Position numbers and translations under genes: made by a program. 64,000 nucleotides of DNA from Naegleria gruberi (Eukaryota), in NCBI GenBank assembly GCA_000004985.1, contig GG738886.1; one strand, 5' to 3'. This document shows positions 1,979 through 57,813 of this stretch, one piece after another. The notes under the pieces are model-generated. The model was not told where the DNA came from. It ran no database searches and saw only the letters and a program-made list of their open reading frames with translations. The first letter of the stretch is position 1, and each line of letters begins with the position of its first letter.

Positions 1979-4900
1979 NNNNNNNNNNNNNNNNNNNNNN
2001 NNNNNNNNNNNNNNNNNNNNNNNNNNNNNNNNNNNNNNNNNNNNNNNNNNNNNNNNNNNNNNNNNNNNNNNNNNNNNNNNNNNNNNNNNNNNNNNNNNNN
2101 NNNNNNNNNNNNNNNNNNNNNNNNNNNNNNNNNNNNNNNNNNNNNNNNNNNNNNNNNNNNNNNNNNNNNNNNNNNNNNNNNNNNNNNNNNNNNNNNNNNN
2201 NNNNNNNNNNNNNNNNNNNNNNNNNNNNNNNNNNNNNNNNNNNNNNNNNNNNNNNNNNNNNNNNNNNNNNNNNNNNNNNNNNNNNNNNNNNNNNNNNNNN
2301 NNNNNNNNNNNNNNNNNNNNNNNNNNNNNNNNNNNNNNNNNNNNNNNNNNNNNNNNNNNNNNNNNNNNNNNNNNNNNNNNNNNNNNNNNNNNNNNNNNNN
2401 NNNNNNNNNNNNNNNNNNNNNNNNNNNNNNNNNNNNNNNNNNNNNNNNNNNNNNNNNNNNNNNNNNNNNNNNNNNNNNNNNNNNNNNNNNNNNNNNNNNN
2501 NNNNNNNNNNNNNNNNNNNNNNNNNNNNNNNNNNNNNNNNNNNNNNNNNNNNNNNNNNNNNNNNNNNNNNNNNNNNNNNNNNNNNNNNNNNNNNNNNNNN
2601 NNNNNNNNNNNNNNNNNNNNNNNNNNNNNNNNNNNNNNNNNNNNNNNNNNNNNNNNNNNNNNNNNNNNNNNNNNNNNNNNNNNNNNNNNNNNNNNNNNNN
2701 NNNNNNNNNNNNNNNNNNNNNNNNNNNNNNNNNNNNNNNNNNNNNNNNNNNNNNNNNNNNNNNNNNNNNNNNNNNNNNNNNNNNNNNNNNNNNNNNNNNN
2801 NNNNNNNNNNNNNNNNNNNNNNNNNNNNNNNNNNNNNNNNNNNNNNNNNNNNNNNNNNNNNNNNNNNNNNNNNNNNNNNNNNNNNNNNNNNNNNNNNNNN
2901 NNNNNNNNNNNNNNNNNNNNNNNNNNNNNNNNNNNNNNNNNNNNNNNNNNNNNNNNNNNNNNNNNNNNNNNNNNNNNNNNNNNNNNNNNNNNNNNNNNNN
3001 NNNNNNNNNNNNNNNNNNNNNNNNNNNNNNNNNNNNNNNNNNNNNNNNNNNNNNNNNNNNNNNNNNNNNNNNNNNNNNNNNNNNNNNNNNNNNNNNNNNN
3101 NNNNNNNNNNNNNNNNNNNNNNNNNNNNNNNNNNNNNNNNNNNNNNNNNNNNNNNNNNNNNNNNNNNNNNNNNNNNNNNNNNNNNNNNNNNNNNNNNNNN
3201 NNNNNNNNNNNNNNNNNNNNNNNNNNNNNNNNNNNNNNNNNNNNNNNNNNNNNNNNNNNNNNNNNNNNNNNNNNNNNNNNNNNNNNNNNNNNNNNNNNNN
3301 NNNNNNNNNNNNNNNNNNNNNNNNNNNNNNNNNNNNNNNNNNNNNNNNNNNNNNNNNNNNNNNNNNNNNNNNNNNNNNNNNNNNNNNNNNNNNNNNNNNN
3401 NNNNNNNNNNNNNNNNNNNNNNNNNNNNNNNNNNNNNNNNNNNNNNNNNNNNNNNNNNNNNNNNNNNNNNNNNNNNNNNNNNNNNNNNNNNNNNNNNNNN
3501 NNNNNNNNNNNNNNNNNNNNNNNNNNNNNNNNNNNNNNNNNNNNNNNNNNNNNNNNNNNNNNNNNNNNNNNNNNNNNNNNNNNNNNNNNNNNNNNNNNNN
3601 NNNNNNNNNNNNNNNNNNNNNNNNNNNNNNNNNNNNNNNNNNNNNNNNNNNNNNNNNNNNNNNNNNNNNNNNNNNNNNNNNNNNNNNNNNNNNNNNNNNN
3701 NNNNNNNNNNNNNNNNNNNNNNNNNNNNNNNNNNNNNNNNNNNNNNNNNNNNNNNNNNNNNNNNNNNNNNNNNNNNNNNNNNNNNNNNNNNNNNNNNNNN
3801 NNNNNNNNNNNNNNNNNNNNNNNNNNNNNNNNNNNNNNNNNNNNNNNNNNNNNNNNNNNNNNNNNNNNNNNNNNNNNNNNNNNNNNNNNNNNNNNNNNNN
3901 NNNNNNNNNNNNNNNNNNNNNNNNNNNNNNNNNNNNNNNNNNNNNNNNNNNNNNNNNNNNNNNNNNNNNNNNNNNNNNNNNNNNNNNNNNNNNNNNNNNN
4001 NNNNNNNNNNNNNNNNNNNNNNNNNNNNNNNNNNNNNNNNNNNNNNNNNNNNNNNNNNNNNNNNNNNNNNNNNNNNNNNNNNNNNNNNNNNNNNNNNNNN
4101 NNNNNNNNNNNNNNNNNNNNNNNNNNNNNNNNNNNNNNNNNNNNNNNNNNNNNNNNNNNNNNNNNNNNNNNNNNNNNNNNNNNNNNNNNNNNNNNNNNNN
4201 NNNNNNNNNNNNNNNNNNNNNNNNNNNNNNNNNNNNNNNNNNNNNNNNNNNNNNNNNNNNNNNNNNNNNNNNNNNNNNNNNNNNNNNNNNNNNNNNNNNN
4301 NNNNNNNNNNNNNNNNNNNNNNNNNNNNNNNNNNNNNNNNNNNNNNNNNNNNNNNNNNNNNNNNNNNNNNNNNNNNNNNNNNNNNNNNNNNNNNNNNNNN
4401 NNNNNNNNNNNNNNNNNNNNNNNNNNNNNNNNNNNNNNNNNNNNNNNNNNNNNNNNNNNNNNNNNNNNNNNNNNNNNNNNNNNNNNNNNNNNNNNNNNNN
4501 NNNNNNNNNNNNNNNNNNNNNNNNNNNNNNNNNNNNNNNNNNNNNNNNNNNNNNNNNNNNNNNNNNNNNNNNNNNNNNNNNNNNNNNNNNNNNNNNNNNN
4601 NNNNNNNNNNNNNNNNNNNNNNNNNNNNNNNNNNNNNNNNNNNNNNNNNNNNNNNNNNNNNNNNNNNNNNNNNNNNNNNNNNNNNNNNNNNNNNNNNNNN
4701 NNNNNNNNNNNNNNNNNNNNNNNNNNNNNNNNNNNNNNNNNNNNNNNNNNNNNNNNNNNNNNNNNNNNNNNNNNNNNNNNNNNNNNNNNNNNNNNNNNNN
4801 NNNNNNNNNNNNNNNNNNNNNNNNNNNNNNNNNNNNNNNNNNNNNNNNNNNNNNNNNNNNNNNNNNNNNNNNNNNNNNNNNNNNNNNNNNNNNNNNNNNN

Positions 4901-7900
4901 NNNNNNNNNNNNNNNNNNNNNNNNNNNNNNNNNNNNNNNNNNNNNNNNNNNNNNNNNNNNNNNNNNNNNNNNNNNNNNNNNNNNNNNNNNNNNNNNNNNN
5001 NNNNNNNNNNNNNNNNNNNNNNNNNNNNNNNNNNNNNNNNNNNNNNNNNNNNNNNNNNNNNNNNNNNNNNNNNNNNNNNNNNNNNNNNNNNNNNNNNNNN
5101 NNNNNNNNNNNNNNNNNNNNNNNNNNNNNNNNNNNNNNNNNNNNNNNNNNNNNNNNNNNNNNNNNNNNNNNNNNNNNNNNNNNNNNNNNNNNNNNNNNNN
5201 NNNNNNNNNNNNNNNNNNNNNNNNNNNNNNNNNNNNNNNNNNNNNNNNNNNNNNNNNNNNNNNNNNNNNNNNNNNNNNNNNNNNNNNNNNNNNNNNNNNN
5301 NNNNNNNNNNNNNNNNNNNNNNNNNNNNNNNNNNNNNNNNNNNNNNNNNNNNNNNNNNNNNNNNNNNNNNNNNNNNNNNNNNNNNNNNNNNNNNNNNNNN
5401 NNNNNNNNNNNNNNNNNNNNNNNNNNNNNNNNNNNNNNNNNNNNNNNNNNNNNNNNNNNNNNNNNNNNNNNNNNNNNNNNNNNNNNNNNNNNNNNNNNNN
5501 NNNNNNNNNNNNNNNNNNNNNNNNNNNNNNNNNNNNNNNNNNNNNNNNNNNNNNNNNNNNNNNNNNNNNNNNNNNNNNNNNNNNNNNNNNNNNNNNNNNN
5601 NNNNNNNNNNNNNNNNNNNNNNNNNNNNNNNNNNNNNNNNNNNNNNNNNNNNNNNNNNNNNNNNNNNNNNNNNNNNNNNNNNNNNNNNNNNNNNNNNNNN
5701 NNNNNNNNNNNNNNNNNNNNNNNNNNNNNNNNNNNNNNNNNNNNNNNNNNNNNNNNNNNNNNNNNNNNNNNNNNNNNNNNNNNNNNNNNNNNNNNNNNNN
5801 NNNNNNNNNNNNNNNNNNNNNNNNNNNNNNNNNNNNNNNNNNNNNNNNNNNNNNNNNNNNNNNNNNNNNNNNNNNNNNNNNNNNNNNNNNNNNNNNNNNN
5901 NNNNNNNNNNNNNNNNNNNNNNNNNNNNNNNNNNNNNNNNNNNNNNNNNNNNNNNNNNNNNNNNNNNNNNNNNNNNNNNNNNNNNNNNNNNNNNNNNNNN
6001 NNNNNNNNNNNNNNNNNNNNNNNNNNNNNNNNNNNNNNNNNNNNNNNNNNNNNNNNNNNNNNNNNNNNNNNNNNNNNNNNNNNNNNNNNNNNNNNNNNNN
6101 NNNNNNNNNNNNNNNNNNNNNNNNNNNNNNNNNNNNNNNNNNNNNNNNNNNNNNNNNNNNNNNNNNNNNNNNNNNNNNNNNNNNNNNNNNNNNNNNNNNN
6201 NNNNNNNNNNNNNNNNNNNNNNNNNNNNNNNNNNNNNNNNNNNNNNNNNNNNNNNNNNNNNNNNNNNNNNNNNNNNNNNNNNNNNNNNNNNNNNNNNNNN
6301 NNNNNNNNNNNNNNNNNNNNNNNNNNNNNNNNNNNNNNNNNNNNNNNNNNNNNNNNNNNNNNNNNNNNNNNNNNNNNNNNNNNNNNNNNNNNNNNNNNNN
6401 NNNNNNNNNNNNNNNNNNNNNNNNNNNNNNNNNNNNNNNNNNNNNNNNNNNNNNNNNNNNNNNNNNNNNNNNNNNNNNNNNNNNNNNNNNNNNNNNNNNN
6501 NNNNNNNNNNNNNNNNNNNNNNNNNNNNNNNNNNNNNNNNNNNNNNNNNNNNNNNNNNNNNNNNNNNNNNNNNNNNNNNNNNNNNNNNNNNNNNNNNNNN
6601 NNNNNNNNNNNNNNNNNNNNNNNNNNNNNNNNNNNNNNNNNNNNNNNNNNNNNNNNNNNNNNNNNNNNNNNNNNNNNNNNNNNNNNNNNNNNNNNNNNNN
6701 NNNNNNNNNNNNNNNNNNNNNNNNNNNNNNNNNNNNNNNNNNNNNNNNNNNNNNNNNNNNNNNNNNNNNNNNNNNNNNNNNNNNNNNNNNNNNNNNNNNN
6801 NNNNNNNNNNNNNNNNNNNNNNNNNNNNNNNNNNNNNNNNNNNNNNNNNNNNNNNNNNNNNNNNNNNNNNNNNNNNNNNNNNNNNNNNNNNNNNNNNNNN
6901 NNNNNNNNNNNNNNNNNNNNNNNNNNNNNNNNNNNNNNNNNNNNNNNNNNNNNNNNNNNNNNNNNNNNNNNNNNNNNNNNNNNNNNNNNNNNNNNNNNNN
7001 NNNNNNNNNNNNNNNNNNNNNNNNNNNNNNNNNNNNNNNNNNNNNNNNNNNNNNNNNNNNNNNNNNNNNNNNNNNNNNNNNNNNNNNNNNNNNNNNNNNN
7101 NNNNNNNNNNNNNNNNNNNNNNNNNNNNNNNNNNNNNNNNNNNNNNNNNNNNNNNNNNNNNNNNNNNNNNNNNNNNNNNNNNNNNNNNNNNNNNNNNNNN
7201 NNNNNNNNNNNNNNNNNNNNNNNNNNNNNNNNNNNNNNNNNNNNNNNNNNNNNNNNNNNNNNNNNNNNNNNNNNNNNNNNNNNNNNNNNNNNNNNNNNNN
7301 NNNNNNNNNNNNNNNNNNNNNNNNNNNNNNNNNNNNNNNNNNNNNNNNNNNNNNNNNNNNNNNNNNNNNNNNNNNNNNNNNNNNNNNNNNNNNNNNNNNN
7401 NNNNNNNNNNNNNNNNNNNNNNNNNNNNNNNNNNNNNNNNNNNNNNNNNNNNNNNNNNNNNNNNNNNNNNNNNNNNNNNNNNNNNNNNNNNNNNNNNNNN
7501 NNNNNNNNNNNNNNNNNNNNNNNNNNNNNNNNNNNNNNNNNNNNNNNNNNNNNNNNNNNNNNNNNNNNNNNNNNNNNNNNNNNNNNNNNNNNNNNNNNNN
7601 NNNNNNNNNNNNNNNNNNNNNNNNNNNNNNNNNNNNNNNNNNNNNNNNNNNNNNNNNNNNNNNNNNNNNNNNNNNNNNNNNNNNNNNNNNNNNNNNNNNN
7701 NNNNNNNNNNNNNNNNNNNNNNNNNNNNNNNNNNNNNNNNNNNNNNNNNNNNNNNNNNNNNNNNNNNNNNNNNNNNNNNNNNNNNNNNNNNNNNNNNNNN
7801 NNNNNNNNNNNNNNNNNNNNNNNNNNNNNNNNNNNNNNNNNNNNNNNNNNNNNNNNNNNNNNNNNNNNNNNNNNNNNNNNNNNNNNNNNNNNNNNNNNNN

Positions 7901-10900
7901 NNNNNNNNNNNNNNNNNNNNNNNNNNNNNNNNNNNNNNNNNNNNNNNNNNNNNNNNNNNNNNNNNNNNNNNNNNNNNNNNNNNNNNNNNNNNNNNNNNNN
8001 NNNNNNNNNNNNNNNNNNNNNNNNNNNNNNNNNNNNNNNNNNNNNNNNNNNNNNNNNNNNNNNNNNNNNNNNNNNNNNNNNNNNNNNNNNNNNNNNNNNN
8101 NNNNNNNNNNNNNNNNNNNNNNNNNNNNNNNNNNNNNNNNNNNNNNNNNNNNNNNNNNNNNNNNNNNNNNNNNNNNNNNNNNNNNNNNNNNNNNNNNNNN
8201 NNNNNNNNNNNNNNNNNNNNNNNNNNNNNNNNNNNNNNNNNNNNNNNNNNNNNNNNNNNNNNNNNNNNNNNNNNNNNNNNNNNNNNNNNNNNNNNNNNNN
8301 NNNNNNNNNNNNNNNNNNNNNNNNNNNNNNNNNNNNNNNNNNNNNNNNNNNNNNNNNNNNNNNNNNNNNNNNNNNNNNNNNNNNNNNNNNNNNNNNNNNN
8401 NNNNNNNNNNNNNNNNNNNNNNNNNNNNNNNNNNNNNNNNNNNNNNNNNNNNNNNNNNNNNNNNNNNNNNNNNNNNNNNNNNNNNNNNNNNNNNNNNNNN
8501 NNNNNNNNNNNNNNNNNNNNNNNNNNNNNNNNNNNNNNNNNNNNNNNNNNNNNNNNNNNNNNNNNNNNNNNNNNNNNNNNNNNNNNNNNNNNNNNNNNNN
8601 NNNNNNNNNNNNNNNNNNNNNNNNNNNNNNNNNNNNNNNNNNNNNNNNNNNNNNNNNNNNNNNNNNNNNNNNNNNNNNNNNNNNNNNNNNNNNNNNNNNN
8701 NNNNNNNNNNNNNNNNNNNNNNNNNNNNNNNNNNNNNNNNNNNNNNNNNNNNNNNNNNNNNNNNNNNNNNNNNNNNNNNNNNNNNNNNNNNNNNNNNNNN
8801 NNNNNNNNNNNNNNNNNNNNNNNNNNNNNNNNNNNNNNNNNNNNNNNNNNNNNNNNNNNNNNNNNNNNNNNNNNNNNNNNNNNNNNNNNNNNNNNNNNNN
8901 NNNNNNNNNNNNNNNNNNNNNNNNNNNNNNNNNNNNNNNNNNNNNNNNNNNNNNNNNNNNNNNNNNNNNNNNNNNNNNNNNNNNNNNNNNNNNNNNNNNN
9001 NNNNNNNNNNNNNNNNNNNNNNNNNNNNNNNNNNNNNNNNNNNNNNNNNNNNNNNNNNNNNNNNNNNNNNNNNNNNNNNNNNNNNNNNNNNNNNNNNNNN
9101 NNNNNNNNNNNNNNNNNNNNNNNNNNNNNNNNNNNNNNNNNNNNNNNNNNNNNNNNNNNNNNNNNNNNNNNNNNNNNNNNNNNNNNNNNNNNNNNNNNNN
9201 NNNNNNNNNNNNNNNNNNNNNNNNNNNNNNNNNNNNNNNNNNNNNNNNNNNNNNNNNNNNNNNNNNNNNNNNNNNNNNNNNNNNNNNNNNNNNNNNNNNN
9301 NNNNNNNNNNNNNNNNNNNNNNNNNNNNNNNNNNNNNNNNNNNNNNNNNNNNNNNNNNNNNNNNNNNNNNNNNNNNNNNNNNNNNNNNNNNNNNNNNNNN
9401 NNNNNNNNNNNNNNNNNNNNNNNNNNNNNNNNNNNNNNNNNNNNNNNNNNNNNNNNNNNNNNNNNNNNNNNNNNNNNNNNNNNNNNNNNNNNNNNNNNNN
9501 NNNNNNNNNNNNNNNNNNNNNNNNNNNNNNNNNNNNNNNNNNNNNNNNNNNNNNNNNNNNNNNNNNNNNNNNNNNNNNNNNNNNNNNNNNNNNNNNNNNN
9601 NNNNNNNNNNNNNNNNNNNNNNNNNNNNNNNNNNNNNNNNNNNNNNNNNNNNNNNNNNNNNNNNNNNNNNNNNNNNNNNNNNNNNNNNNNNNNNNNNNNN
9701 NNNNNNNNNNNNNNNNNNNNNNNNNNNNNNNNNNNNNNNNNNNNNNNNNNNNNNNNNNNNNNNNNNNNNNNNNNNNNNNNNNNNNNNNNNNNNNNNNNNN
9801 NNNNNNNNNNNNNNNNNNNNNNNNNNNNNNNNNNNNNNNNNNNNNNNNNNNNNNNNNNNNNNNNNNNNNNNNNNNNNNNNNNNNNNNNNNNNNNNNNNNN
9901 NNNNNNNNNNNNNNNNNNNNNNNNNNNNNNNNNNNNNNNNNNNNNNNNNNNNNNNNNNNNNNNNNNNNNNNNNNNNNNNNNNNNNNNNNNNNNNNNNNNN
10001 NNNNNNNNNNNNNNNNNNNNNNNNNNNNNNNNNNNNNNNNNNNNNNNNNNNNNNNNNNNNNNNNNNNNNNNNNNNNNNNNNNNNNNNNNNNNNNNNNNNN
10101 NNNNNNNNNNNNNNNNNNNNNNNNNNNNNNNNNNNNNNNNNNNNNNNNNNNNNNNNNNNNNNNNNNNNNNNNNNNNNNNNNNNNNNNNNNNNNNNNNNNN
10201 NNNNNNNNNNNNNNNNNNNNNNNNNNNNNNNNNNNNNNNNNNNNNNNNNNNNNNNNNNNNNNNNNNNNNNNNNNNNNNNNNNNNNNNNNNNNNNNNNNNN
10301 NNNNNNNNNNNNNNNNNNNNNNNNNNNNNNNNNNNNNNNNNNNNNNNNNNNNNNNNNNNNNNNNNNNNNNNNNNNNNNNNNNNNNNNNNNNNNNNNNNNN
10401 NNNNNNNNNNNNNNNNNNNNNNNNNNNNNNNNNNNNNNNNNNNNNNNNNNNNNNNNNNNNNNNNNNNNNNNNNNNNNNNNNNNNNNNNNNNNNNNNNNNN
10501 NNNNNNNNNNNNNNNNNNNNNNNNNNNNNNNNNNNNNNNNNNNNNNNNNNNNNNNNNNNNNNNNNNNNNNNNNNNNNNNNNNNNNNNNNNNNNNNNNNNN
10601 NNNNNNNNNNNNNNNNNNNNNNNNNNNNNNNNNNNNNNNNNNNNNNNNNNNNNNNNNNNNNNNNNNNNNNNNNNNNNNNNNNNNNNNNNNNNNNNNNNNN
10701 NNNNNNNNNNNNNNNNNNNNNNNNNNNNNNNNNNNNNNNNNNNNNNNNNNNNNNNNNNNNNNNNNNNNNNNNNNNNNNNNNNNNNNNNNNNNNNNNNNNN
10801 NNNNNNNNNNNNNNNNNNNNNNNNNNNNNNNNNNNNNNNNNNNNNNNNNNNNNNNNNNNNNNNNNNNNNNNNNNNNNNNNNNNNNNNNNNNNNNNNNNNN

Positions 10901-13900
10901 NNNNNNNNNNNNNNNNNNNNNNNNNNNNNNNNNNNNNNNNNNNNNNNNNNNNNNNNNNNNNNNNNNNNNNNNNNNNNNNNNNNNNNNNNNNNNNNNNNNN
11001 NNNNNNNNNNNNNNNNNNNNNNNNNNNNNNNNNNNNNNNNNNNNNNNNNNNNNNNNNNNNNNNNNNNNNNNNNNNNNNNNNNNNNNNNNNNNNNNNNNNN
11101 NNNNNNNNNNNNNNNNNNNNNNNNNNNNNNNNNNNNNNNNNNNNNNNNNNNNNNNNNNNNNNNNNNNNNNNNNNNNNNNNNNNNNNNNNNNNNNNNNNNN
11201 NNNNNNNNNNNNNNNNNNNNNNNNNNNNNNNNNNNNNNNNNNNNNNNNNNNNNNNNNNNNNNNNNNNNNNNNNNNNNNNNNNNNNNNNNNNNNNNNNNNN
11301 NNNNNNNNNNNNNNNNNNNNNNNNNNNNNNNNNNNNNNNNNNNNNNNNNNNNNNNNNNNNNNNNNNNNNNNNNNNNNNNNNNNNNNNNNNNNNNNNNNNN
11401 NNNNNNNNNNNNNNNNNNNNNNNNNNNNNNNNNNNNNNNNNNNNNNNNNNNNNNNNNNNNNNNNNNNNNNNNNNNNNNNNNNNNNNNNNNNNNNNNNNNN
11501 NNNNNNNNNNNNNNNNNNNNNNNNNNNNNNNNNNNNNNNNNNNNNNNNNNNNNNNNNNNNNNNNNNNNNNNNNNNNNNNNNNNNNNNNNNNNNNNNNNNN
11601 NNNNNNNNNNNNNNNNNNNNNNNNNNNNNNNNNNNNNNNNNNNNNNNNNNNNNNNNNNNNNNNNNNNNNNNNNNNNNNNNNNNNNNNNNNNNNNNNNNNN
11701 NNNNNNNNNNNNNNNNNNNNNNNNNNNNNNNNNNNNNNNNNNNNNNNNNNNNNNNNNNNNNNNNNNNNNNNNNNNNNNNNNNNNNNNNNNNNNNNNNNNN
11801 NNNNNNNNNNNNNNNNNNNNNNNNNNNNNNNNNNNNNNNNNNNNNNNNNNNNNNNNNNNNNNNNNNNNNNNNNNNNNNNNNNNNNNNNNNNNNNNNNNNN
11901 NNNNNNNNNNNNNNNNNNNNNNNNNNNNNNNNNNNNNNNNNNNNNNNNNNNNNNNNNNNNNNNNNNNNNNNNNNNNNNNNNNNNNNNNNNNNNNNNNNNN
12001 NNNNNNNNNNNNNNNNNNNNNNNNNNNNNNNNNNNNNNNNNNNNNNNNNNNNNNNNNNNNNNNNNNNNNNNNNNNNNNNNNNNNNNNNNNNNNNNNNNNN
12101 NNNNNNNNNNNNNNNNNNNNNNNNNNNNNNNNNNNNNNNNNNNNNNNNNNNNNNNNNNNNNNNNNNNNNNNNNNNNNNNNNNNNNNNNNNNNNNNNNNNN
12201 NNNNNNNNNNNNNNNNNNNNNNNNNNNNNNNNNNNNNNNNNNNNNNNNNNNNNNNNNNNNNNNNNNNNNNNNNNNNNNNNNNNNNNNNNNNNNNNNNNNN
12301 NNNNNNNNNNNNNNNNNNNNNNNNNNNNNNNNNNNNNNNNNNNNNNNNNNNNNNNNNNNNNNNNNNNNNNNNNNNNNNNNNNNNNNNNNNNNNNNNNNNN
12401 NNNNNNNNNNNNNNNNNNNNNNNNNNNNNNNNNNNNNNNNNNNNNNNNNNNNNNNNNNNNNNNNNNNNNNNNNNNNNNNNNNNNNNNNNNNNNNNNNNNN
12501 NNNNNNNNNNNNNNNNNNNNNNNNNNNNNNNNNNNNNNNNNNNNNNNNNNNNNNNNNNNNNNNNNNNNNNNNNNNNNNNNNNNNNNNNNNNNNNNNNNNN
12601 NNNNNNNNNNNNNNNNNNNNNNNNNNNNNNNNNNNNNNNNNNNNNNNNNNNNNNNNNNNNNNNNNNNNNNNNNNNNNNNNNNNNNNNNNNNNNNNNNNNN
12701 NNNNNNNNNNNNNNNNNNNNNNNNNNNNNNNNNNNNNNNNNNNNNNNNNNNNNNNNNNNNNNNNNNNNNNNNNNNNNNNNNNNNNNNNNNNNNNNNNNNN
12801 NNNNNNNNNNNNNNNNNNNNNNNNNNNNNNNNNNNNNNNNNNNNNNNNNNNNNNNNNNNNNNNNNNNNNNNNNNNNNNNNNNNNNNNNNNNNNNNNNNNN
12901 NNNNNNNNNNNNNNNNNNNNNNNNNNNNNNNNNNNNNNNNNNNNNNNNNNNNNNNNNNNNNNNNNNNNNNNNNNNNNNNNNNNNNNNNNNNNNNNNNNNN
13001 NNNNNNNNNNNNNNNNNNNNNNNNNNNNNNNNNNNNNNNNNNNNNNNNNNNNNNNNNNNNNNNNNNNNNNNNNNNNNNNNNNNNNNNNNNNNNNNNNNNN
13101 NNNNNNNNNNNNNNNNNNNNNNNNNNNNNNNNNNNNNNNNNNNNNNNNNNNNNNNNNNNNNNNNNNNNNNNNNNNNNNNNNNNNNNNNNNNNNNNNNNNN
13201 NNNNNNNNNNNNNNNNNNNNNNNNNNNNNNNNNNNNNNNNNNNNNNNNNNNNNNNNNNNNNNNNNNNNNNNNNNNNNNNNNNNNNNNNNNNNNNNNNNNN
13301 NNNNNNNNNNNNNNNNNNNNNNNNNNNNNNNNNNNNNNNNNNNNNNNNNNNNNNNNNNNNNNNNNNNNNNNNNNNNNNNNNNNNNNNNNNNNNNNNNNNN
13401 NNNNNNNNNNNNNNNNNNNNNNNNNNNNNNNNNNNNNNNNNNNNNNNNNNNNNNNNNNNNNNNNNNNNNNNNNNNNNNNNNNNNNNNNNNNNNNNNNNNN
13501 NNNNNNNNNNNNNNNNNNNNNNNNNNNNNNNNNNNNNNNNNNNNNNNNNNNNNNNNNNNNNNNNNNNNNNNNNNNNNNNNNNNNNNNNNNNNNNNNNNNN
13601 NNNNNNNNNNNNNNNNNNNNNNNNNNNNNNNNNNNNNNNNNNNNNNNNNNNNNNNNNNNNNNNNNNNNNNNNNNNNNNNNNNNNNNNNNNNNNNNNNNNN
13701 NNNNNNNNNNNNNNNNNNNNNNNNNNNNNNNNNNNNNNNNNNNNNNNNNNNNNNNNNNNNNNNNNNNNNNNNNNNNNNNNNNNNNNNNNNNNNNNNNNNN
13801 NNNNNNNNNNNNNNNNNNNNNNNNNNNNNNNNNNNNNNNNNNNNNNNNNNNNNNNNNNNNNNNNNNNNNNNNNNNNNNNNNNNNNNNNNNNNNNNNNNNN

Positions 13901-15500
13901 NNNNNNNNNNNNNNNNNNNNNNNNNNNNNNNNNNNNNNNNNNNNNNNNNNNNNNNNNNNNNNNNNNNNNNNNNNNNNNNNNNNNNNNNNNNNNNNNNNNN
14001 NNNNNNNNNNNNNNNNNNNNNNNNNNNNNNNNNNNNNNNNNNNNNNNNNNNNNNNNNNNNNNNNNNNNNNNNNNNNNNNNNNNNNNNNNNNNNNNNNNNN
14101 NNNNNNNNNNNNNNNNNNNNNNNNNNNNNNNNNNNNNNNNNNNNNNNNNNNNNNNNNNNNNNNNNNNNNNNNNNNNNNNNNNNNNNNNNNNNNNNNNNNN
14201 NNNNNNNNNNNNNNNNNNNNNNNNNNNNNNNNNNNNNNNNNNNNNNNNNNNNNNNNNNNNNNNNNNNNNNNNNNNNNNNNNNNNNNNNNNNNNNNNNNNN
14301 NNNNNNNNNNNNNNNNNNNNNNNNNNNNNNNNNNNNNNNNNNNNNNNNNNNNNNNNNNNNNNNNNNNNNNNNNNNNNNNNNNNNNNNNNNNNNNNNNNNN
14401 NNNNNNNNNNNNNNNNNNNNNNNNNNNNNNNNNNNNNNNNNNNNNNNNNNNNNNNNNNNNNNNNNNNNNNNNNNNNNNNNNNNNNNNNNNNNNNNNNNNN
14501 NNNNNNNNNNNNNNNNNNNNNNNNNNNNNNNNNNNNNNNNNNNNNNNNNNNNNNNNNNNNNNNNNNNNNNNNNNNNNNNNNNNNNNNNNNNNNNNNNNNN
14601 NNNNNNNNNNNNNNNNNNNNNNNNNNNNNNNNNNNNNNNNNNNNNNNNNNNNNNNNNNNNNNNNNNNNNNNNNNNNNNNNNNNNNNNNNNNNNNNNNNNN
14701 NNNNNNNNNNNNNNNNNNNNNNNNNNNNNNNNNNNNNNNNNNNNNNNNNNNNNNNNNNNNNNNNNNNNNNNNNNNNNNNNNNNNNNNNNNNNNNNNNNNN
14801 NNNNNNNNNNNNNNNNNNNNNNNNNNNNNNNNNNNNNNNNNNNNNNNNNNNNNNNNNNNNNNNNNNNNNNNNNNNNNNNNNNNNNNNNNNNNNNNNNNNN
14901 NNNNNNNNNNNNNNNNNNNNNNNNNNNNNNNNNNNNNNNNNNNNNNNNNNNNNNNNNNNNNNNNNNNNNNNNNNNNNNNNNNNNNNNNNNNNNNNNNNNN
15001 NNNNNNNNNNNNNNNNNNNNNNNNNNNNNNNNNNNNNNNNNNNNNNNNNNNNNNNNNNNNNNNNNNNNNNNNNNNNNNNNNNNNNNNNNNNNNNNNNNNN
15101 NNNNNNNNNNNNNNNNNNNNNNNNNNNNNNNNNNNNNNNNNNNNNNNNNNNNNNNNNNNNNNNNNNNNNNNNNNNNNNNNNNNNNNNNNNNNNNNNNNNN
15201 NNNNNNNNNNNNNNNNNNNNNNNNNNNNNNNNNNNNNNNNNNNNNNNNNNNNNNNNNNNNNNNNNNNNNNNNNNNNNNNNNNNNNNNNNNNNNNNNNNNN
15301 NNNNNNNNNNNNNNNNNNNNNNNNNNNNNNNNNNNNNNNNNNNNNNNNNNNNNNNNNNNNNNNNNNNNNNNNNNNNNNNNNNNNNNNNNNNNNNNNNNNN
15401 NNNNNNNNNNNNNNNNNNNNNNNNNNNNNNNNNNNNNNNNNNNNNNNNNNNNNNNNNNNNNNNNNNNNNNNNNNNNNNNNNNNNNNNNNNNNNNNNNNNN
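1979..15500. other. Assembly gap: 13,522 consecutive N
   Basis: Uninterrupted run of n. The three giant 'ORFs' spanning it in the track are X-translation artifacts. Confidence 0.99.
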
Positions 15501-26773: not shown

Positions 26774-26856
26774 TGCCAGCGGTGGGGTTCGAACCCACGA
26801 ACCCATTCGGGATAAGATCTTAAGTCTTACGCATTTGACCACTCTGCTACGCGGGC
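26774..26856 (-). tRNA. tRNA-Leu (anticodon UAA), type II long variable arm; copy 1 of 3
   Basis: Cloverleaf seen directly. Acceptor GCCCGCG/CGCTGGC has one C:U mismatch. D-arm GCA-GAGTGGTCAAA-TGC. Anticodon stem TAAGA/TCTTA with loop CTTAAGA. Variable hairpin CCC-GAAT-GGG. T-arm GTGGG-TTCGAAC-CCCAC. A-box TAGCAGAGTGG and B-box GGTTCGAACCC are present. A 3' T-run follows. Confidence 0.9.
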
Positions 26857-26917: not shown

Positions 26918-28072
26918 TTAATAGACTTTTATTTCCGCCATTACCTTCTTGTCAATAGATGCATCCTCAATCATTACTTCCTCACTCATCAATAATCCAA
27001 ATAATAGAGGGAATTGAATGTAACATCTGGCATCAGTTTTGCAACTTAGCTCAAAATATTGAACTTTCAAATCTTTCAATGAAATACCACCATCAATAAT
27101 GGGTACAAACTGTTGGAGGAGATTTTCAATTCGACTCATTTTCACCTTTCTTACTAAATCTCTCTTCAATCCAATAATTATCATACTTGACCTTTCACAT
27201 TGTAAATAATCATTCCAAGGAGTATTTTGAGGTTTTTCACTATTATTGTCAATAAGTTCCTTCATTCGATCAAAAGACTCTTCATCACTCAAATCAAAGC
27301 AATAAATGATTGTCTTGGAACCTCTTTTATAGGCTGATGCAATTGATTGAAACCTTGCATGTCCACCAGTATCCCATAATTGAATTTTGCAATGTAAATT
27401 ATTATTATACTCATAACCTTTTGAATAAAACTCAACTCCAATGGTTTGAGAATATTTTGAATCAAATAATCTTGTTGAATCTGAAAATAATTTAGCAAGT
27501 TCAGATTTACCACATTGATCGTTTCCCATTAAAACTTGTTTACAAATCATAGAGTTGGGTACATCTGATTTTTCTTTGTATGAACTTAAAATAGTTTGTA
27601 TAAAGTGATGATAATATACAATACTATTGATTGGTGATTGCATAATTGGTTTAAAATACATGAAAATCTCATTGTAATCATCCAACAATCTTCCTCTCCA
27701 TAAAAAACTATTTTGAGTCCAATAATATTTGAAATTTTTGGAAACTCGTTGTAATTTGAAAAGTTCATGATTCATTAAAAATCCCAAAATACAAATAAAT
27801 AATTCATCAGGTAATTCCTTTTCAAAAATTGAACAATTTTCATAATTATAGACTGCATATTTCTCAACACTCTTCAGATCACTTTTTGATTCGATTAAAT
27901 CATGAAAAATCTTGTTTGGAAACATTTTAGGATTTGCTAATTTGTTGATGAGAGATGATTTTTTAAGTTGTTCAACACGATCCGAATTAATGAAAGCCAT
28001 TGAAGATGATGATGTAGATGAGGAGCAAACAGGTGGCGGTGGTGCAATTTTCTGAGGTTGTGATTGACCCAT
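26918..28072 (-). CDS. F-box + Rab-like small GTPase domain protein, copy A (384 aa). The catalytic Gln is replaced by His.
   Basis: F-box LPDELFICILGFLMNHELFKLQRVSKNF. GTPase motifs: G1 GNDQCGKSEL; switch-I TIGVEF; G3 WDTGGHARF (Rab WDTAGQERF); G4 GLKRDL (degenerate NKxD); G5 SCK. True ATG at 28072. Confidence 0.8.
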   Translation of the reverse strand: MGQSQPQKIAPPPPVCSSSTSSSSMAFINSDRVEQLKKSSLINKLANPKMFPNKIFHDLIESKSDLKSVEKYAVYNYENCSIFEKELPDELFICILGFLMNHELFKLQRVSKNFKYYWTQNSFLWRGRLLDDYNEIFMYFKPIMQSPINSIVYYHHFIQTILSSYKEKSDVPNSMICKQVLMGNDQCGKSELAKLFSDSTRLFDSKYSQTIGVEFYSKGYEYNNNLHCKIQLWDTGGHARFQSIASAYKRGSKTIIYCFDLSDEESFDRMKELIDNNSEKPQNTPWNDYLQCERSSMIIIGLKRDLVRKVKMSRIENLLQQFVPIIDGGISLKDLKVQYFELSCKTDARCYIQFPLLFGLLMSEEVMIEDASIDKKVMAEIKVY

Positions 28073-48964: not shown

Positions 48965-50132
48965 TTAACATATAATACATGAATCCTTTTCCTTTGTTGG
49001 TGGAACTGTTTGTTCTTTTGGATAATTTGGAGAGTCAAGATTGTGTTTAGCAACCAAATATTTCTCCCACTGAATGGTGAGGAGATTCTTGTAAATGTCA
49101 GTGGATGGTTCCTCTGTAACAATTCTAAACTCTTGAGGTCCATTCATGATAATTTCTCTGTTTGCACCACTCCAACTGAATAGACACTATTTTGATTAGA
49201 GAAAGAATAAAAGATTCATTACTTACAGGGCCAGCTCCATTGTGAAATGGATTAATTTCAATAATTGTTACACCCTTAGTTGGTGAAACAAAGAAATCAA
49301 CGACGAATGAAGGATGGGGAATTCTCTCAATGCAAAACCCATTGAAGAACTCATTAATTTTCTTTAAAATTTCTTCTTTTTGAGCAATTAAATCATCAAA
49401 CTTGAAATCACAAAAGTATTGAGAAATGGCGTTCAATTTCTTTTCGTGTACGAAACATCTAAATTCAAATTGAGGCAATTCAATCATTTCTTCGTTCCAC
49501 TCTCTTAAAATTATCTTACTTTCGTACAATTTCTCACCAAATCCAGTGTTCTTTTGCAAATCCTCATAAATTCTCTGTGATCTTCCCAATAATTCCATTG
49601 CAGATTTTCCACTATTAATTTTCATCGACTTGTTCATTGCTTTAAGGAAAGCAACACAAATATTATTTGGTGTCCTGTCAGAAACTCTTTCCACTTCCTT
49701 ATTTAATTGATTTTGATAACTTTCATCATTATGACACTTCCATGGTACATCTTTTGGACTTCTTGTATTCAATTTAACAAAAGCTCCATCATTAAACTCT
49801 GTATGAGCTGCCAAACATTCATCAATTCTTTTTTCAACATTTTCCAATAAAACAACTTCTTCACTAGTTAAACTTGTTGTTTTTTCATAGGTTTTTGCAT
49901 TCACTTTAAACAAGGATATTAAAGCCAAGGCTTCTTGATAGGATAAATCAACACTTCTAGTTTTGAAGGTAAAAGGTTCCAGCTCTGCAGTACACCATGA
50001 TTCAATTCCGAAACAATTTTGATAATGCTTTCTTCTGTATTGTTCAATTTGATGATCGGCAACTCCTAATTCTCTGATTTGATCATCAGATAGTAAAAAA
50101 GGGCTGGAATAGAAAGAAGGTTGTTGTGACAT
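48965..50132 (-). CDS. CDC123: CDC123 (D123 family ATP-grasp-like protein). Exons are 49227..50132 and 48965..49186, with a 40-nt intron at 49187..49226 (gtaagtaatg...aaatag).
   Basis: AFVKLNTRSPKD; EFRCFVHEKKLNAISQ...AQKEEILKKINEFF...VTIIEINPF match human CDC123 (EFRCFVKENKLIGISQ...SKQKEEIRRCIQDFF). Only the 40-nt splice restores the conserved C-terminus (LFSW...EFRIVTEE, compare LFTW...AFRCTNSE). Confidence 0.85.
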
Positions 50133-50232
50133 TTTTTTGTTGGATAAAGTTCGTTTGAACTTGGTACTTTTACAAATTACAAGATAAGGTTATTGTATTA
50201 TATAATCATAGAAAAATCCAAAATGAACACCA

Positions 50233-50315
50233 GCCCGCGTAGCAGAGTGGTCAAATGCGTAAGACTTAAGATCTTATCCCGAATGGGTTCGTGGGTTCGA
50301 ACCCCACCGCTGGCA
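50233..50315 (+). tRNA. tRNA-Leu (UAA), copy 2
   Basis: Identical 83-nt sequence to copy 1, followed by TTTCCTTTT. Confidence 0.9.
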
Positions 50316-50446
50316 TTTCCTTTTACCTTTGACAGAAAGAAATGGAACTTGAGACTTAATGTATCTTATATGATGTCTATTGACCAGAATTAATATTTTA
50401 AAGTTCCATTCTAACAATTTACAAATTAATTTCCAAAGATAAAAAA

Positions 50447-51595
50447 ATGGGTCAATCACAACCTCAGAAAATTGCACCACCACCACCTGTTTGCTCCTCA
50501 TCTACATCATCATCTTCAATGCCTTTCATTAATTCGGATCGTGTTGAACAACTTAAAAAATCATCTCTCATCAACAAGTTGGCAAATCCTAAAATGTTTC
50601 CAAACAAGATTTTTCATGATTTAATCGAATCAAAAAGTGATCTGAAGAGTGTTGAGAAATATGCAGTTTATAATTATGAAAATTGTTCAATTTTTGAAAA
50701 GGAATTGCCAGATGAATTATTTATTTGTATTTTGGGATTTTTAATGAATCATGAACTTTTCAAATTACAACGAGTTTCCAAAAATTTCAAATATTATTGG
50801 ACTCAAAATAGTTTTTTATGGAGAGGAAGATTGTTGGATGATTACAATAAGATTTTCATGTATTTTAAACCAATTATGCAATCACCAAACAATAGTATTG
50901 TATATTATCATCACTTTATACAAACAATTTTAAGTTCGTACAAAGAAAAATCAGATGTACCCAACTCTATGATTTGTAAACAAGTTTTAATGGGAATGGA
51001 TCAATGTGGTAAATCTGAACTAGCTAAATTATTTTCAGATTCAACAAGATTATTTGATTCAAAATATTCTCGAACCATTGGAGTTGAGTTTTATTCAAAA
51101 GGTTATGAGTATAATAATAATTTACATTGCAAAATTCAATTATGGGATACTGGTGGACATGCAAGGTTTCAATCAATTGCATCAGCCTATAAAAGAGGTT
51201 CCAAGACTATCATTTATTGCTTTGATTTGAGTGATGAAGAGTCTTTTGATCGAATGAAGGAACTTATTGACAATAATAGTGAAAAACCTCAAAATACTCC
51301 TTGGAATGATTATTTACAATGTGAAAGGTTAAGTATGATAATTATTGGATTGAAGAGAGATTTAGTAAGAAAGGTGAAAATGAGTCGAATTGAAAATCTC
51401 CTCCAACAGTTTGTACCCATTATTGATGGTATTTCATTGAAAGATTTGAAAGTTCAATATTTTGAGCTAAGTTGTAAAACTGATGCCAGATGTTACATTC
51501 AATTCCCTCTATTATTTGGATTATTGATGAGTGAGGAAGTAATGATTGAGGATGCATCTATTGACAAGAAGGTAATGGCGGAAATAAAAACTTGA
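50447..51595 (+). CDS. F-box + Rab-like small GTPase domain protein, copy B (382 aa, TGA stop)
   Basis: Same domain order and motifs as copy A, with 7 aa substitutions and a 1-codon indel (IIDGISLKD vs IIDGGISLKD). True ATG. Confidence 0.8.
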   Translation: MGQSQPQKIAPPPPVCSSSTSSSSMPFINSDRVEQLKKSSLINKLANPKMFPNKIFHDLIESKSDLKSVEKYAVYNYENCSIFEKELPDELFICILGFLMNHELFKLQRVSKNFKYYWTQNSFLWRGRLLDDYNKIFMYFKPIMQSPNNSIVYYHHFIQTILSSYKEKSDVPNSMICKQVLMGMDQCGKSELAKLFSDSTRLFDSKYSRTIGVEFYSKGYEYNNNLHCKIQLWDTGGHARFQSIASAYKRGSKTIIYCFDLSDEESFDRMKELIDNNSEKPQNTPWNDYLQCERLSMIIIGLKRDLVRKVKMSRIENLLQQFVPIIDGISLKDLKVQYFELSCKTDARCYIQFPLLFGLLMSEEVMIEDASIDKKVMAEIKT

Positions 51596-51604
51596 TGAGC
51601 ACCA

Positions 51605-51687
51605 GCCCGCGTAGCAGAGTGGTCAAATGCGTAAGACTTAAGATCTTATCCCGAATGGGTTCGTGGGTTCGAACCCCACCGCTGGCA
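51605..51687 (+). tRNA. tRNA-Leu (UAA), copy 3
   Basis: Identical to copies 1 and 2. It starts 9 nt after the stop of F-box/Rab copy B. It shares about 37 nt of 3' flank with copy 2 (tttcctttt.c.tttg.cagaaagaaatggaacttga). Confidence 0.9.
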
Positions 51688-51796
51688 TTTCCTTTTTCTT
51701 TGCCAGAAAGAAATGGAACTTGATCGAATATATTGCTAAATAATTGCTTTTATATTCAATTTTTGAAATGCAAGTGTGAAAATCCATTCCAAAAAA

Positions 51797-55226: not shown

Positions 55227-55544
55227 ATGGGAAACTTCTTTTCGTCGAATAATCTTTCGCGAGTGAAAGAACTTCCAGATGAAATTTTATTTACAGAAAT
55301 TTTATCCTATTTGCCTTTGAGAGATTTACCGAATCTTTTGGTTATTTCTAAAGATTTCAATCGGAAAGTGTTGTCATCACACAGTTTATTATATCAGTTT
55401 AGTTTGTATACAAATCCATTCATTTCACTTTCGAATAAAACTGATTTAAAAGATAGAAAAATGACCTATTCCGAAATGAAGAAGGAAATAATTGAATATG
55501 ATTCAATGATTCATAGAATTAAATATTCAAAAACCGTAGAATAA
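55227..55544 (+). CDS. Small F-box-only protein (105 aa, MGNFFSS start)
   Basis: F-box LPDEILFTEILSYLPLRDLPNLLVISKDFNRKV. Confidence 0.6.
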   Translation: MGNFFSSNNLSRVKELPDEILFTEILSYLPLRDLPNLLVISKDFNRKVLSSHSLLYQFSLYTNPFISLSNKTDLKDRKMTYSEMKKEIIEYDSMIHRIKYSKTVE

Positions 55545-56019: not shown

Positions 56020-57813
56020 ATGGGTCAAAACATTCATGCTCCACGTGTTTTCATTTCCTCTAACGAAAAGCAAGGAGACGAATATGTAATTAGTGGAAAC
56101 CTTTCGAATAACAGTTCAACACCAACTAATCTCCACAGTCATAATGTATTTGATGATGCACATTCTAATGGATTATCTCCACCTCATCCTTCTGGTCAAG
56201 CTCCTTTAATTATTGTTGGAGGTTCTTCAAGTGGCAGTAGTAGTGGAGGTGATGAAATAGTTTCGTCTCCTTTCCATTCACCTCGTTCTCCAAAATTTGT
56301 TAGAAATCATGACGATGTAATATTTGACAATCTTTCTGATTCTTCCTATTCTACTTCTCCACAAAATTCACCGAAACTAACCTCAAGAACCAAGAGAATG
56401 AGCTCTGGTCCAAACTACTCACCAAAACTTGAAAATTTTAGAAAGACTCAACAGCAACAAACTAAACAACCAACTGTTTGGTTTTCTTCTGTTTCTAATG
56501 AATCTGATTGGATGGACCATTCGAATAGATTTGCTCATACCAAAAAGCAAAAAATGGTTCTCATGTTAAGTTATGGAGTAAATACTCATTCTGAAGATTT
56601 ATTTCAATATTGGTTTCAGAGATTTTTACCAAAAAGTGAAGAAACACAAACCAAAAGCAAGATTATGCAATTGTGTGCTTTATATTTGAGAAGATTGTGT
56701 TTTGCATATGTAAATAGAAGTTGTTCATCTCAATTAATTCAAGAATGTTCTACATCAACTTGTTCTAATGAAGGTGTTGATCAGATGGTGGACTATTCGA
56801 AAACATTGAAAAGGTTTGATTCATGGTCATTATCACCACTCACTAGAGAAGAAACATTTTCACATGATGATTTCATCAATGAACTCATTGACATGTTAGT
56901 TAACAATGATGAATCATTTATTTTACAATCACTTGGTCATTGGAATGCAAATATTCTCACAAATATGGAATTGTTATGGAAGAGTGAGGCTATTCAACGT
57001 GCAGCCTCTAAATTAGTTGAACAGCAGGTTTACATGGATGAGAAAGTTTATGCAGAGTACTTTTTAAATTCCATTCCTCACTTATTAGATTCTAGTTACA
57101 ATTTAACAGTTTCAGATTTATCGAATGCACAGAGACGTAAATTCAAAATTAATGAAATTAAGATTGTCGATCAGGGAAATTATGATTGTCTCTATTCAGT
57201 ATTGGATATTTCAAGTATGGGAGGAGAAAAGACGAAGTGGTTGAGATCATTCAATAACGTTGATGGATTTTTAATGATTTTTTCACTAGATGAGATAGCT
57301 CAAGACAAATCAGTCCTTCAGAAATCTTTGCATTCCTTCAGAGAAATGACTAGTTACTTCTTTGGAAATAATCAGCAACAAAATGGATGTAAAACTCAAA
57401 TCTATGTATGCTTTTCCAATGTTGCTGAATTCTGCAAATTGGTCAAATCAGAAGAATTACCACTTCAACATTCACTCAAAGGAGATGTCAAGAATCCTTC
57501 CATAGTTTTCAAATATATAGTTTCCCAATTCATGGCCAGTAATGGCAGTTGTTCCAATAATTTAACAGAGAGAAATCCAACAAGTTCTCAAAACATTTCC
57601 TTCTATGCCATTGATAGTTTCTCAGACTATTATTCAATGTACGAATTTACGAGTTATTTACTTGAGGGAAGAAATTATTTCAGTGAACTGATAACAGGTG
57701 CTAAGGAGAAGAGAGAAGTATCGAGGAGAGGTGAATTGTTTTCCATGTGCAAATTGAGTCATGATGATAAATTGAAAAGGAAATTGATAGATATTTCATT
57801 TAACTTTGAGTAA
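56020..57813 (+). CDS. Heterotrimeric G-protein alpha-subunit-like protein with degenerate nucleotide-binding motifs (a likely pseudo-GTPase). It has an MGQ N-terminus and a Ser/Pro-rich linker.
   Basis: Switch region RKFKINEIKIVDQGNYDCLYSVLDISSMGGEKTKWLRSF aligns with G-alpha RVKTTGI...FDVGGQRSERKKWIHCF (DVGGQ replaced by DISSMGGE). IYVCFSNVAEF aligns with IILFLNKKDLF (NKxD lost). FYAIDS aligns with TCATDT. There is no GxxxxGKS P-loop. Confidence 0.65.
   Translation: MGQNIHAPRVFISSNEKQGDEYVISGNLSNNSSTPTNLHSHNVFDDAHSNGLSPPHPSGQAPLIIVGGSSSGSSSGGDEIVSSPFHSPRSPKFVRNHDDVIFDNLSDSSYSTSPQNSPKLTSRTKRMSSGPNYSPKLENFRKTQQQQTKQPTVWFSSVSNESDWMDHSNRFAHTKKQKMVLMLSYGVNTHSEDLFQYWFQRFLPKSEETQTKSKIMQLCALYLRRLCFAYVNRSCSSQLIQECSTSTCSNEGVDQMVDYSKTLKRFDSWSLSPLTREETFSHDDFINELIDMLVNNDESFILQSLGHWNANILTNMELLWKSEAIQRAASKLVEQQVYMDEKVYAEYFLNSIPHLLDSSYNLTVSDLSNAQRRKFKINEIKIVDQGNYDCLYSVLDISSMGGEKTKWLRSFNNVDGFLMIFSLDEIAQDKSVLQKSLHSFREMTSYFFGNNQQQNGCKTQIYVCFSNVAEFCKLVKSEELPLQHSLKGDVKNPSIVFKYIVSQFMASNGSCSNNLTERNPTSSQNISFYAIDSFSDYYSMYEFTSYLLEGRNYFSELITGAKEKREVSRRGELFSMCKLSHDDKLKRKLIDISFNFE

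Follow-up and report, generated by a model that had tools for sequence, protein, structure and literature searches.

F-box-Rab-like proteins encoded by a duplicated gene pair of Naegleria gruberi: candidate SCF receptors whose G domains have lost the catalytic glutamine

Introduction

We examined a 64,000-nucleotide stretch of Naegleria gruberi DNA (contig GG738886.1 of assembly GCA_000004985.1; the whole stretch is called the window below), in which a gene at 50447-51595 (+) encodes a protein of 382 residues that joins an N-terminal F-box to a Rab-like G domain, and a close paralogue at 26918-28072 (-) encodes one of 384 residues. The reading we favour, and to which we give an even chance of being correct, is that these proteins would act as substrate receptors or adaptors of a Skp1-Cul1-F-box (SCF) ubiquitin ligase, with a Rab-like domain that would bind guanine nucleotide and hydrolyse it slowly or not at all. 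Across the family to which both proteins belong, the position of the catalytic glutamine has been released from constraint, and the residue classes that contact guanine nucleotide and Mg2+ have largely been kept.

Architecture and genes alike have been described before. In their new annotation of the Ras superfamily in N. gruberi and N. fowleri, Herman et al. (2021; BMC Biol, PMC8296547) describe Naegleria-specific divergent Rab-like expansions with a conserved N-terminal extension, in many members of which an F-box is identifiable. They report clades without discernible close relatives outside Naegleria, subject to lineage-specific birth-and-death evolution and including disrupted members, and use N. 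fowleri names such as RabX13/RabX14. Table S8 of that work (Additional file 10) enters both window genes, XP_002674035.1 and XP_002674104.1, as 'Rab + F-box'; it also holds the members XP_002672750.1, XP_002672693.1, XP_002672819.1, XP_002677172.1 and XP_002681903.1 of our family alignment, and the alignment members that appear in it include P0023, P0025, P0041, P0022 and P0124. An earlier note on the window, written from its letters and without database searches, had called the fusion unusual, which is correct relative to most eukaryotes, but the fusion is not new. The supplementary text consulted (Additional file 4) makes no mention of loss of the catalytic glutamine, of the change in the NKxD motif or of the glycine that follows the initiator methionine (Gly2).

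Results

Both copies carry the two domains in one uninterrupted open reading frame (ORF). The F-box occupies 50702-50821 (+) in the 50447 gene (residues 86-125, LPDELFICILGFLMNHELFKLQRVSKNFKYYW...) and scores 26.2 bits against Pfam PF00646, with 26.5 bits in the paralogue and a cut-off of 20.5 bits; the G domain occupies 50978-51493 (+) (residues 178-349) and scores 87.7 bits against the Pfam Ras profile PF00071, with 90.6 bits in the paralogue and a cut-off of 21.6 bits. A linker of about 50 residues separates them. The earlier note's proposal that a single frame holds a complete Ras-superfamily G domain together with an F-box is therefore confirmed in both copies, and the domain searches on which it had made the G domain depend support that domain. 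Of 21 family representatives, 19 combine F-box and G domain, and these come from at least three species; the pattern is not due to chance.

The F-box is genuine, being canonical in sequence and in predicted fold. A profile built from the N-terminal region of 16 relatives (alignment A2) and run against all sequences of the PDB had nearly all its matches in the F-box segments of SCF receptors of known structure, among them KDM2A/B, FBXW8, FBXL5, Cdc4, FBXW7, FBXO4, FBXL2/3, FBXO3, Skp2 and cyclin F. In an AlphaFold model of the same region the predicted local distance difference test (pLDDT) exceeded 90 over the F-box helices, and a Foldseek search with this model returned F-box-protein chains, mostly from Skp1 complexes, as 42 of 46 matches by count. 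All of these structural matches were weak and none reached E<=0.001, as is expected of a motif of 40 residues; the matched F-box cores superposed typically at about 1-3 Å root-mean-square deviation. Run against a database of 5.8 billion proteins, the A2 profile gave 867 candidates, none at E<=0.001.

Each ORF is identical to a single-exon NCBI model from the nuclear DNA of N. gruberi NEG-M, both models being placed on a contig of 358,576 bp: the complete 382-residue frame, which starts MGQSQPQ, is an exact match to XP_002674035.1 ('rab family member'), and the 384-residue frame, with the same start, is an exact match to XP_002674104.1 ('rab family small GTPase'). The earlier note had correctly reported the uninterrupted frame at 50447-51595 and a paralogue with the same two domains. 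It had also raised the case of separate genes joined across a missed stop or intron, and this does not apply: a hidden stop or intron between F-box and G domain is ruled out by the continuity of the frame in both copies and its identity to the NCBI models, and an artefact of domain joining is further countered by the retention of the architecture in 19 of 21 relatives.

The two loci are the product of a recent segmental duplication. In a self-BLAST of the window, 50383-51589 and 28134-26927 align at 97.9% nucleotide identity over 1210 bp, and the match runs on into the downstream tRNA-Leu(UAA) gene (ARAGORN and self-BLAST), so that the duplicated unit consists of gene plus tRNA. That tRNA gene lies at 51605-51687 (+), 10 bp downstream of the 50447 gene, and at 26774-26856 (-), just downstream of the paralogue. 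A third copy at 50233-50315 (+) stands upstream of the 50447 gene; all three tRNA-Leu(UAA) genes are identical in sequence. Direct repeats of about 130 bp (the tRNA gene and its flanks) at 50223-50352 and 51595-51723 bracket the 50447 gene, and such repeats may have mediated its duplication. The paralogue has the same architecture and the same WDTGGH and LKRD motifs. Between the copies there are 12 synonymous and 9 nonsynonymous substitutions and a one-codon indel, and the last residue or two differ. By the Nei-Gojobori method the synonymous distance (dS) is 0.057 and the nonsynonymous distance (dN) 0.0098, giving dN/dS of 0.17. Because of this ratio and the significant deficit of nonsynonymous changes (p = 1e-4), both copies are under purifying selection. 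On the strength of intact frames together with dN/dS of 0.17, pseudogene status is rejected.

Judged by sequence and predicted fold, the G domain is Rab-like, and in this assignment the earlier note was right. Its best sequence matches in the PDB were Ypt1/Rab1/Sec4/Rab8, with E of about 1e-15 (HMMER), and the top 60 such matches were all Rabs, including Ypt1, Rab1A/B, Sec4, Rab8A, Rab35, Rab11, Rab3 and Rab9. A full-length AlphaFold2 (AF2) model made on the family alignment had a mean pLDDT of 80 and a predicted template-modelling score (pTM) of 0.77, and the top 50 Foldseek matches of this model in the PDB were again all Rabs (Rab8a, Rab1, Rab27, Rab3, Sec4, Rab35, Rab30, Rab43, Rab10 and Rab11 among them), with target-normalised TM scores of 0.63-0.83. 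Comparison of the domain and of the family profile with a small set of human references ranked similarity as Rab1A > Rab7/Rab5 > Ran > Ras/Rho > Arf, an order that serves as a lead only. The RabF motifs as set out by Pereira-Leal and Seabra are reportedly IGVDF, KLQIW, RFRSIT, YYRGA and LVYDIT; against these definitions the protein reads IGVEF, KIQLW, RFQSIA, AYKRGS and IYCFDLS, so that RabF1-3 are recognisable and F4/F5 degraded. Between alpha3 and beta5 lies an insert of about 10 residues (NNSEKPQNTPWNDYLQCE). All family members have this variable loop, and an in-frame intron is thereby ruled out as its origin.

'Rab-like' is the right label because the fold is that of a Rab, yet the protein is without the catalytic Gln, the Asn of NKxD and a C-terminal Cys for prenylation. 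The two copies end in ...VMAEIKT and ...VMAEIKVY, with no Cys and no prenylation motif of the CC, CXC, CCXX or CaaX type. CaaX motifs are reported, in passages of Herman et al. (PMC8296547), for one of three clades, whereas the subgroup to which the window genes belong has none.

The motifs that the earlier note had quoted (TIGVEF, WDTGGHARF, SCK and LKRD) are all present. The P-loop, or G1 motif, GMDQCGKS lies at 50993-51016 (+) (residues 183-190); its Asp185 and Gln186, both bulky, occupy the positions equivalent to G12 and G13 of Ras. Switch I has TIGVEF at residues 210-215, and the G3/switch II motif WDTGGHARF lies at 51143-51169 (+) (residues 233-241). There His238, encoded by CAT at 51158-51160, replaces the catalytic Gln; in the HMMER alignment to Ypt1/Rab1 it stands opposite the Gln of DTAGQ, and the Gln-to-His exchange that the earlier note had read from the motif is thus real. 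In the G4 motif GLKRD at 51347-51361 (+) (residues 301-305), Leu stands where NKxD has Asn, and Lys and Asp remain. The G5 motif SCK is at residues 342-344.

A motif table built on the 21-sequence family alignment places these residues in context. Largely conserved across the family are the P-loop GxxxxGK[ST], the switch-I Thr, the Asp and Gly of DxxG, the Lys and Asp/Glu of G4 and the SxK of G5. Twenty representatives cover the P-loop and 19 of them show its pattern, the exception being P0134 with GPKSSGKK. The position equivalent to the catalytic Gln is hypervariable: the residues found there are H, K, S, D, E, N, G and I, with Q in a single representative. The family consensus of G4 is [LMTF]K.[DE], its first position never being N, and the G3 motif is degenerate in P0031, P0124 and P0134. 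By segment, conservation is highest in the G motifs and the F-box, and variation is among the strongest in switch II, the interswitch and the linker; switch II of ordinary Rabs carries the highly conserved RabF3/F4 motifs.

Because the Gln-equivalent position is hypervariable, His238 is not a specific innovation. It is one state of an unconstrained position, best seen as an instance of family-wide loss of constraint on the catalytic site, and the family has dispensed with a Gln that acts in cis. The substitution on which the earlier note had built its case is not, then, the defining feature of these proteins, and the 'GTPase-deficient' switch that it predicted is plausible. Its description of that switch as 'nucleotide-atypical' is not supported, the specificity-determining Asp, the Lys and the other nucleotide-binding residues all being retained. 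Altered nucleotide specificity from the LKRD motif was considered and is unsupported, as both residues in contact with the guanine base, Lys and Asp, are still there. Since the protein also keeps the GK[ST] of the P-loop, the switch-I Thr, DxxG and SxK, ordinary guanine-nucleotide binding is predicted.

Relatives with the same architecture occur in Naegleria and Willaertia. Exhaustive searching of 1.84 billion cluster representatives with HMMER yielded 11 proteins with E below 1e-30 and a further tail of relatives that align across both F-box and G domain, with family members in N. gruberi, N. lovaniensis, Willaertia magna and metagenome contigs. A survey of architectures, which the earlier note had suggested, shows F-box plus G domain in most of the representatives, which come from Naegleria, Willaertia and metagenomes. 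The Willaertia members P0058 and P0087 correspond to KAL9645612.1 and KAL9643114.1, and P0087 also has His at the Gln position (WDLGGHAKY). Because members are found in W. magna, the family is older than the genus Naegleria, and the window genes are best placed among F-box-Rab-like proteins that expanded specifically in Heterolobosea (Naegleria plus Willaertia); this slightly extends the distribution stated in PMC8296547. Bacterial relatives of the window protein were not confirmed in a single-protein scan of bacterial genome contigs, and there were none among the 20 representatives whose source was looked up. In many long HMMER matches (P0019, P0020, P0024, P0026 and P0048-P0083) two to four complete Rab domains follow one another in tandem, P0055 having TerD as well; such multi-Rab proteins may be real, or may come from fused gene models.

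The N-terminus is a further common feature. A start of MG[QN] is found in 17 of 21 representatives, which are all 17 with an intact N-terminus, and the MGQ start that the earlier note had seen in both copies belongs to this family-wide pattern. The G-alpha-like ORF at 56020 also begins MGQ, as the earlier note had said. The PROSITE N-myristoylation pattern PS00008 fits 10 of the 17 representatives. Both window copies have Pro at position 6, which breaks the pattern, and we do not claim N-myristoylation for them.

The surroundings of the 50447 gene hold further genes of interest. Its upstream neighbour at 49125-50132 (-) is a D123/CDC123-family ATP-grasp gene (Pfam PF07065, 82.5 bits), divergently oriented to it and with a tRNA-Leu gene in the intergenic region. 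An ORF of 105 residues at 55227-55544 (+) has a Pfam F-box match of 23.9 bits and no other Pfam domain, and its start, MGNFFSS, fits the N-myristoylation pattern. An exact-sequence look-up of this ORF returned an ENA assembly only and no NCBI accession; it may be unannotated, and may be either an F-box-only gene or the remnant of an F-box-GTPase gene. The G-alpha-like gene at 56020-57813 (+) (XP_002674037.1, 597 residues) is listed in Table S8 of PMC8296547 as a Gpa with an N. fowleri orthologue. Its Pfam G-alpha match covers profile positions 103-303 only and its long N-terminus is of low complexity; with no GxxxxGK[ST], DxxG or [NT]KxD motif in the protein, it looks like a degenerate (pseudo-GTPase) G-alpha. 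The window is AT-rich (GC about 32%). Positions 1979-15500 are an assembly gap filled with 13.5 kb of N, which produces artefactual giant 'ORFs' of more than 4,500 residues in a mechanical ORF list.

Discussion

The combination of a canonical F-box with a Rab-like domain that has kept its nucleotide-binding residues and lost its catalytic Gln suggests a receptor of the following kind. The F-box would dock the protein on Skp1-Cul1-Rbx1, the SCF core, and the folded Rab-like domain that lies C-terminal to it (Pfam and AF2 model) would be the substrate-recognition module, acting through its diversified switch II/interswitch face; that this domain binds substrate is what we infer. Ras Q61H and G12D both impair GTPase activity, and for this reason intrinsic hydrolysis is expected to be slow or absent, so that the domain would remain mostly in one nucleotide state, probably the GTP-bound one. 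Regulation would then operate more by abundance and turnover than by a fast GTPase cycle. The protein would in this way couple a Rab-type recognition surface to ubiquitination, in parallel to Rab40-SOCS-Cul5 and RhoBTB-Cul3.

The metazoan Rab40 proteins keep both the catalytic Gln and C-terminal prenylation. Like the protein proposed here, Rab40 unites a Rab G domain with a cullin-RING docking box and serves substrate recognition by an E3 ligase (PMC8129794, PMC10509765), and we regard it as the best functional analogue. EPLIN, ANKRD28 and Rap2 are among the substrates that its Rab domain picks out for SOCS-Cul5 (PMC8129794 and related papers). The SOCS box of Rab40 is C-terminal and recruits ElonginB/C-Cul5, in contrast to the Skp1-Cul1 expected for an F-box, and Pfam finds no SOCS box in the window proteins; the two architectures are not homologous. 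In RhoBTB, too, a cullin adaptor module is joined to a Ras-superfamily G domain, here of an atypical kind (PMC4931677). It assembles Cul3 ligases, has no known exchange factors for guanine nucleotides and no known GTPase-activating proteins (GAPs), and has been proposed to be subject to autoinhibition and auto-ubiquitination. Its G domain is of Rho type and N-terminal, and its adaptor is BTB/Cul3, whereas the window proteins are Rab-like, carry an F-box and have no BTB domain in Pfam.

Closer in arrangement is TbFRP of the Euglenozoa, another discoban lineage, in which an F-box also lies upstream of a Rab-like GTPase domain (PMC3593210). TbFRP has an N-terminal FYVE domain that binds phosphatidylinositol 3-phosphate, in contrast to the window proteins, in which Pfam finds no FYVE at E<=1. 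Its authors found no N. gruberi orthologue (PMC3593210), and there was no FRP-like protein among our top 150 HMMER matches, the 10 long multi-domain matches scanned being tandem Rabs without FYVE or F-box. The F-box-GTPase core of TbFRP and that of the window proteins may have a common origin or may have converged. In Legionella, which parasitise Naegleria and other amoebae, there are Rab-domain effectors, some with an F-box or U-box (Gomez-Valero et al., bioRxiv 10.1101/350777), and so a Rab-like domain and an F-box within one polypeptide as in the window proteins. Those are secreted bacterial proteins and the present ones amoebal, and because the searches above turned up no relative of the window protein in bacteria, the two fusions are probably independent.

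Herman et al., in passages of PMC8296547, suggested 'GTPase-dependent ubiquitination' for such proteins and a role at the 'organism-environment interface', and the same authors hold that a specific function is not predictable from sequence. Their caution is one of several points that weigh against an SCF receptor held in one nucleotide state. F-boxes can also function independently of SCF, or can serve mainly the turnover of the protein that carries them. The degenerate G3 motifs of P0031, P0124 and P0134 are a further difficulty, since with such motifs the G domain may be a nucleotide-independent scaffold in part of the family. Nor is a His at the Gln position necessarily inactive, in that TBC GAPs supply a Gln in trans (as described in a section of PMC11101121).

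Turnover of this kind is the alternative that survives best, although we consider it unlikely: the F-box would mainly set the stability of the protein itself, with SCF auto-ubiquitination making a short-lived Rab-like protein whose control lies in synthesis and degradation, not in GAPs, and which is otherwise engaged in ordinary Rab signalling. TbFRP is rapidly proteolysed and a role in turnover was suggested for its F-box (PMC3593210), auto-ubiquitination has been proposed for RhoBTB (PMC4931677), and loss of the catalytic Gln would fit a switch that is turned off by degradation. However, the lack of a C-terminal prenylation motif and the highly variable switch II argue against the effector cycle of a canonical membrane Rab. 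Control of its own stability is moreover compatible with a receptor role, F-box proteins being commonly auto-ubiquitinated while they serve as receptors.

We think it rather unlikely that the protein is still an active GTPase, in which His238 would be catalytic or a TBC GAP would provide both Arg and Gln fingers, and an on/off cycle would gate recruitment to SCF. A catalytic His is found in translational GTPases (the DxPGH of the EF-Tu type). The nucleotide-binding motifs are all retained, His recurs in the Willaertia relative P0087, and the dual-finger mechanism of TBC proteins provides Gln in trans (Pan et al. 2006, as cited in a section of PMC11101121). Against such activity, close relatives have K, S, D, E, N, G or I at this position, and there is thus no conserved chemistry. 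The impaired hydrolysis of Ras Q61H also speaks against it, as do the bulky Asp185 and Gln186, given that bulky residues at these sites hinder GAP action in Ras.

An SCF-independent role of F-box and Skp1 in membrane traffic, after the manner of Rcy1, is in our estimate quite improbable. Yeast Rcy1 is an F-box protein that acts with Skp1 and the Rab11-type Ypt31/32 in recycling, without Cul1. The resemblance of the G domain to Rab1/8 would suit such a role, and the Gly2 found throughout the family hints at acylation and attachment to membranes, but the window copies fail the myristoylation consensus.

More speculative, and in our view a long shot, is a part in amoebal defence, in which the proteins would be GTP-locked decoys that mimic Rab1/Rab8, capture Rab-targeting effectors of bacteria (for instance Legionella or chlamydiae) or other Rab-binding proteins and deliver them to SCF for ubiquitination. 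The integrated decoys of plant nucleotide-binding leucine-rich repeat receptors (NLR-IDs) follow an analogous logic. A decoy role would be compatible with the Rab1/8 similarity and with an effector-binding face that is variable as against the conserved nucleotide-binding motifs. It would be compatible also with the birth-and-death evolution and the 'organism-environment interface' role described in passages of PMC8296547, and with bacterial Rab and F-box mimicry (in parts of bioRxiv 10.1101/350777). Finally, that the genes are decaying, functionless products of birth-and-death evolution, as disrupted members of these clades (passages of PMC8296547) and degenerate G motifs in some relatives might suggest, is very improbable given that both copies have intact ORFs, all G1-G5 cores and dN/dS of 0.17 (p = 1e-4) since duplication.

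If the N. gruberi proteins are indeed SCF receptors, they would represent an unusually direct coupling of small-GTPase-type recognition to ubiquitination, with parallels in the isolated animal cases of Rab40 and RhoBTB. Family-wide loss of the catalytic Gln with retention of the residues that bind nucleotide makes a testable prediction, namely that these domains would be GTP-locked or very slow switches. The gene pair would thereby offer a well-defined protist example of predicted GTPase-domain receptors of cullin-RING ligases.

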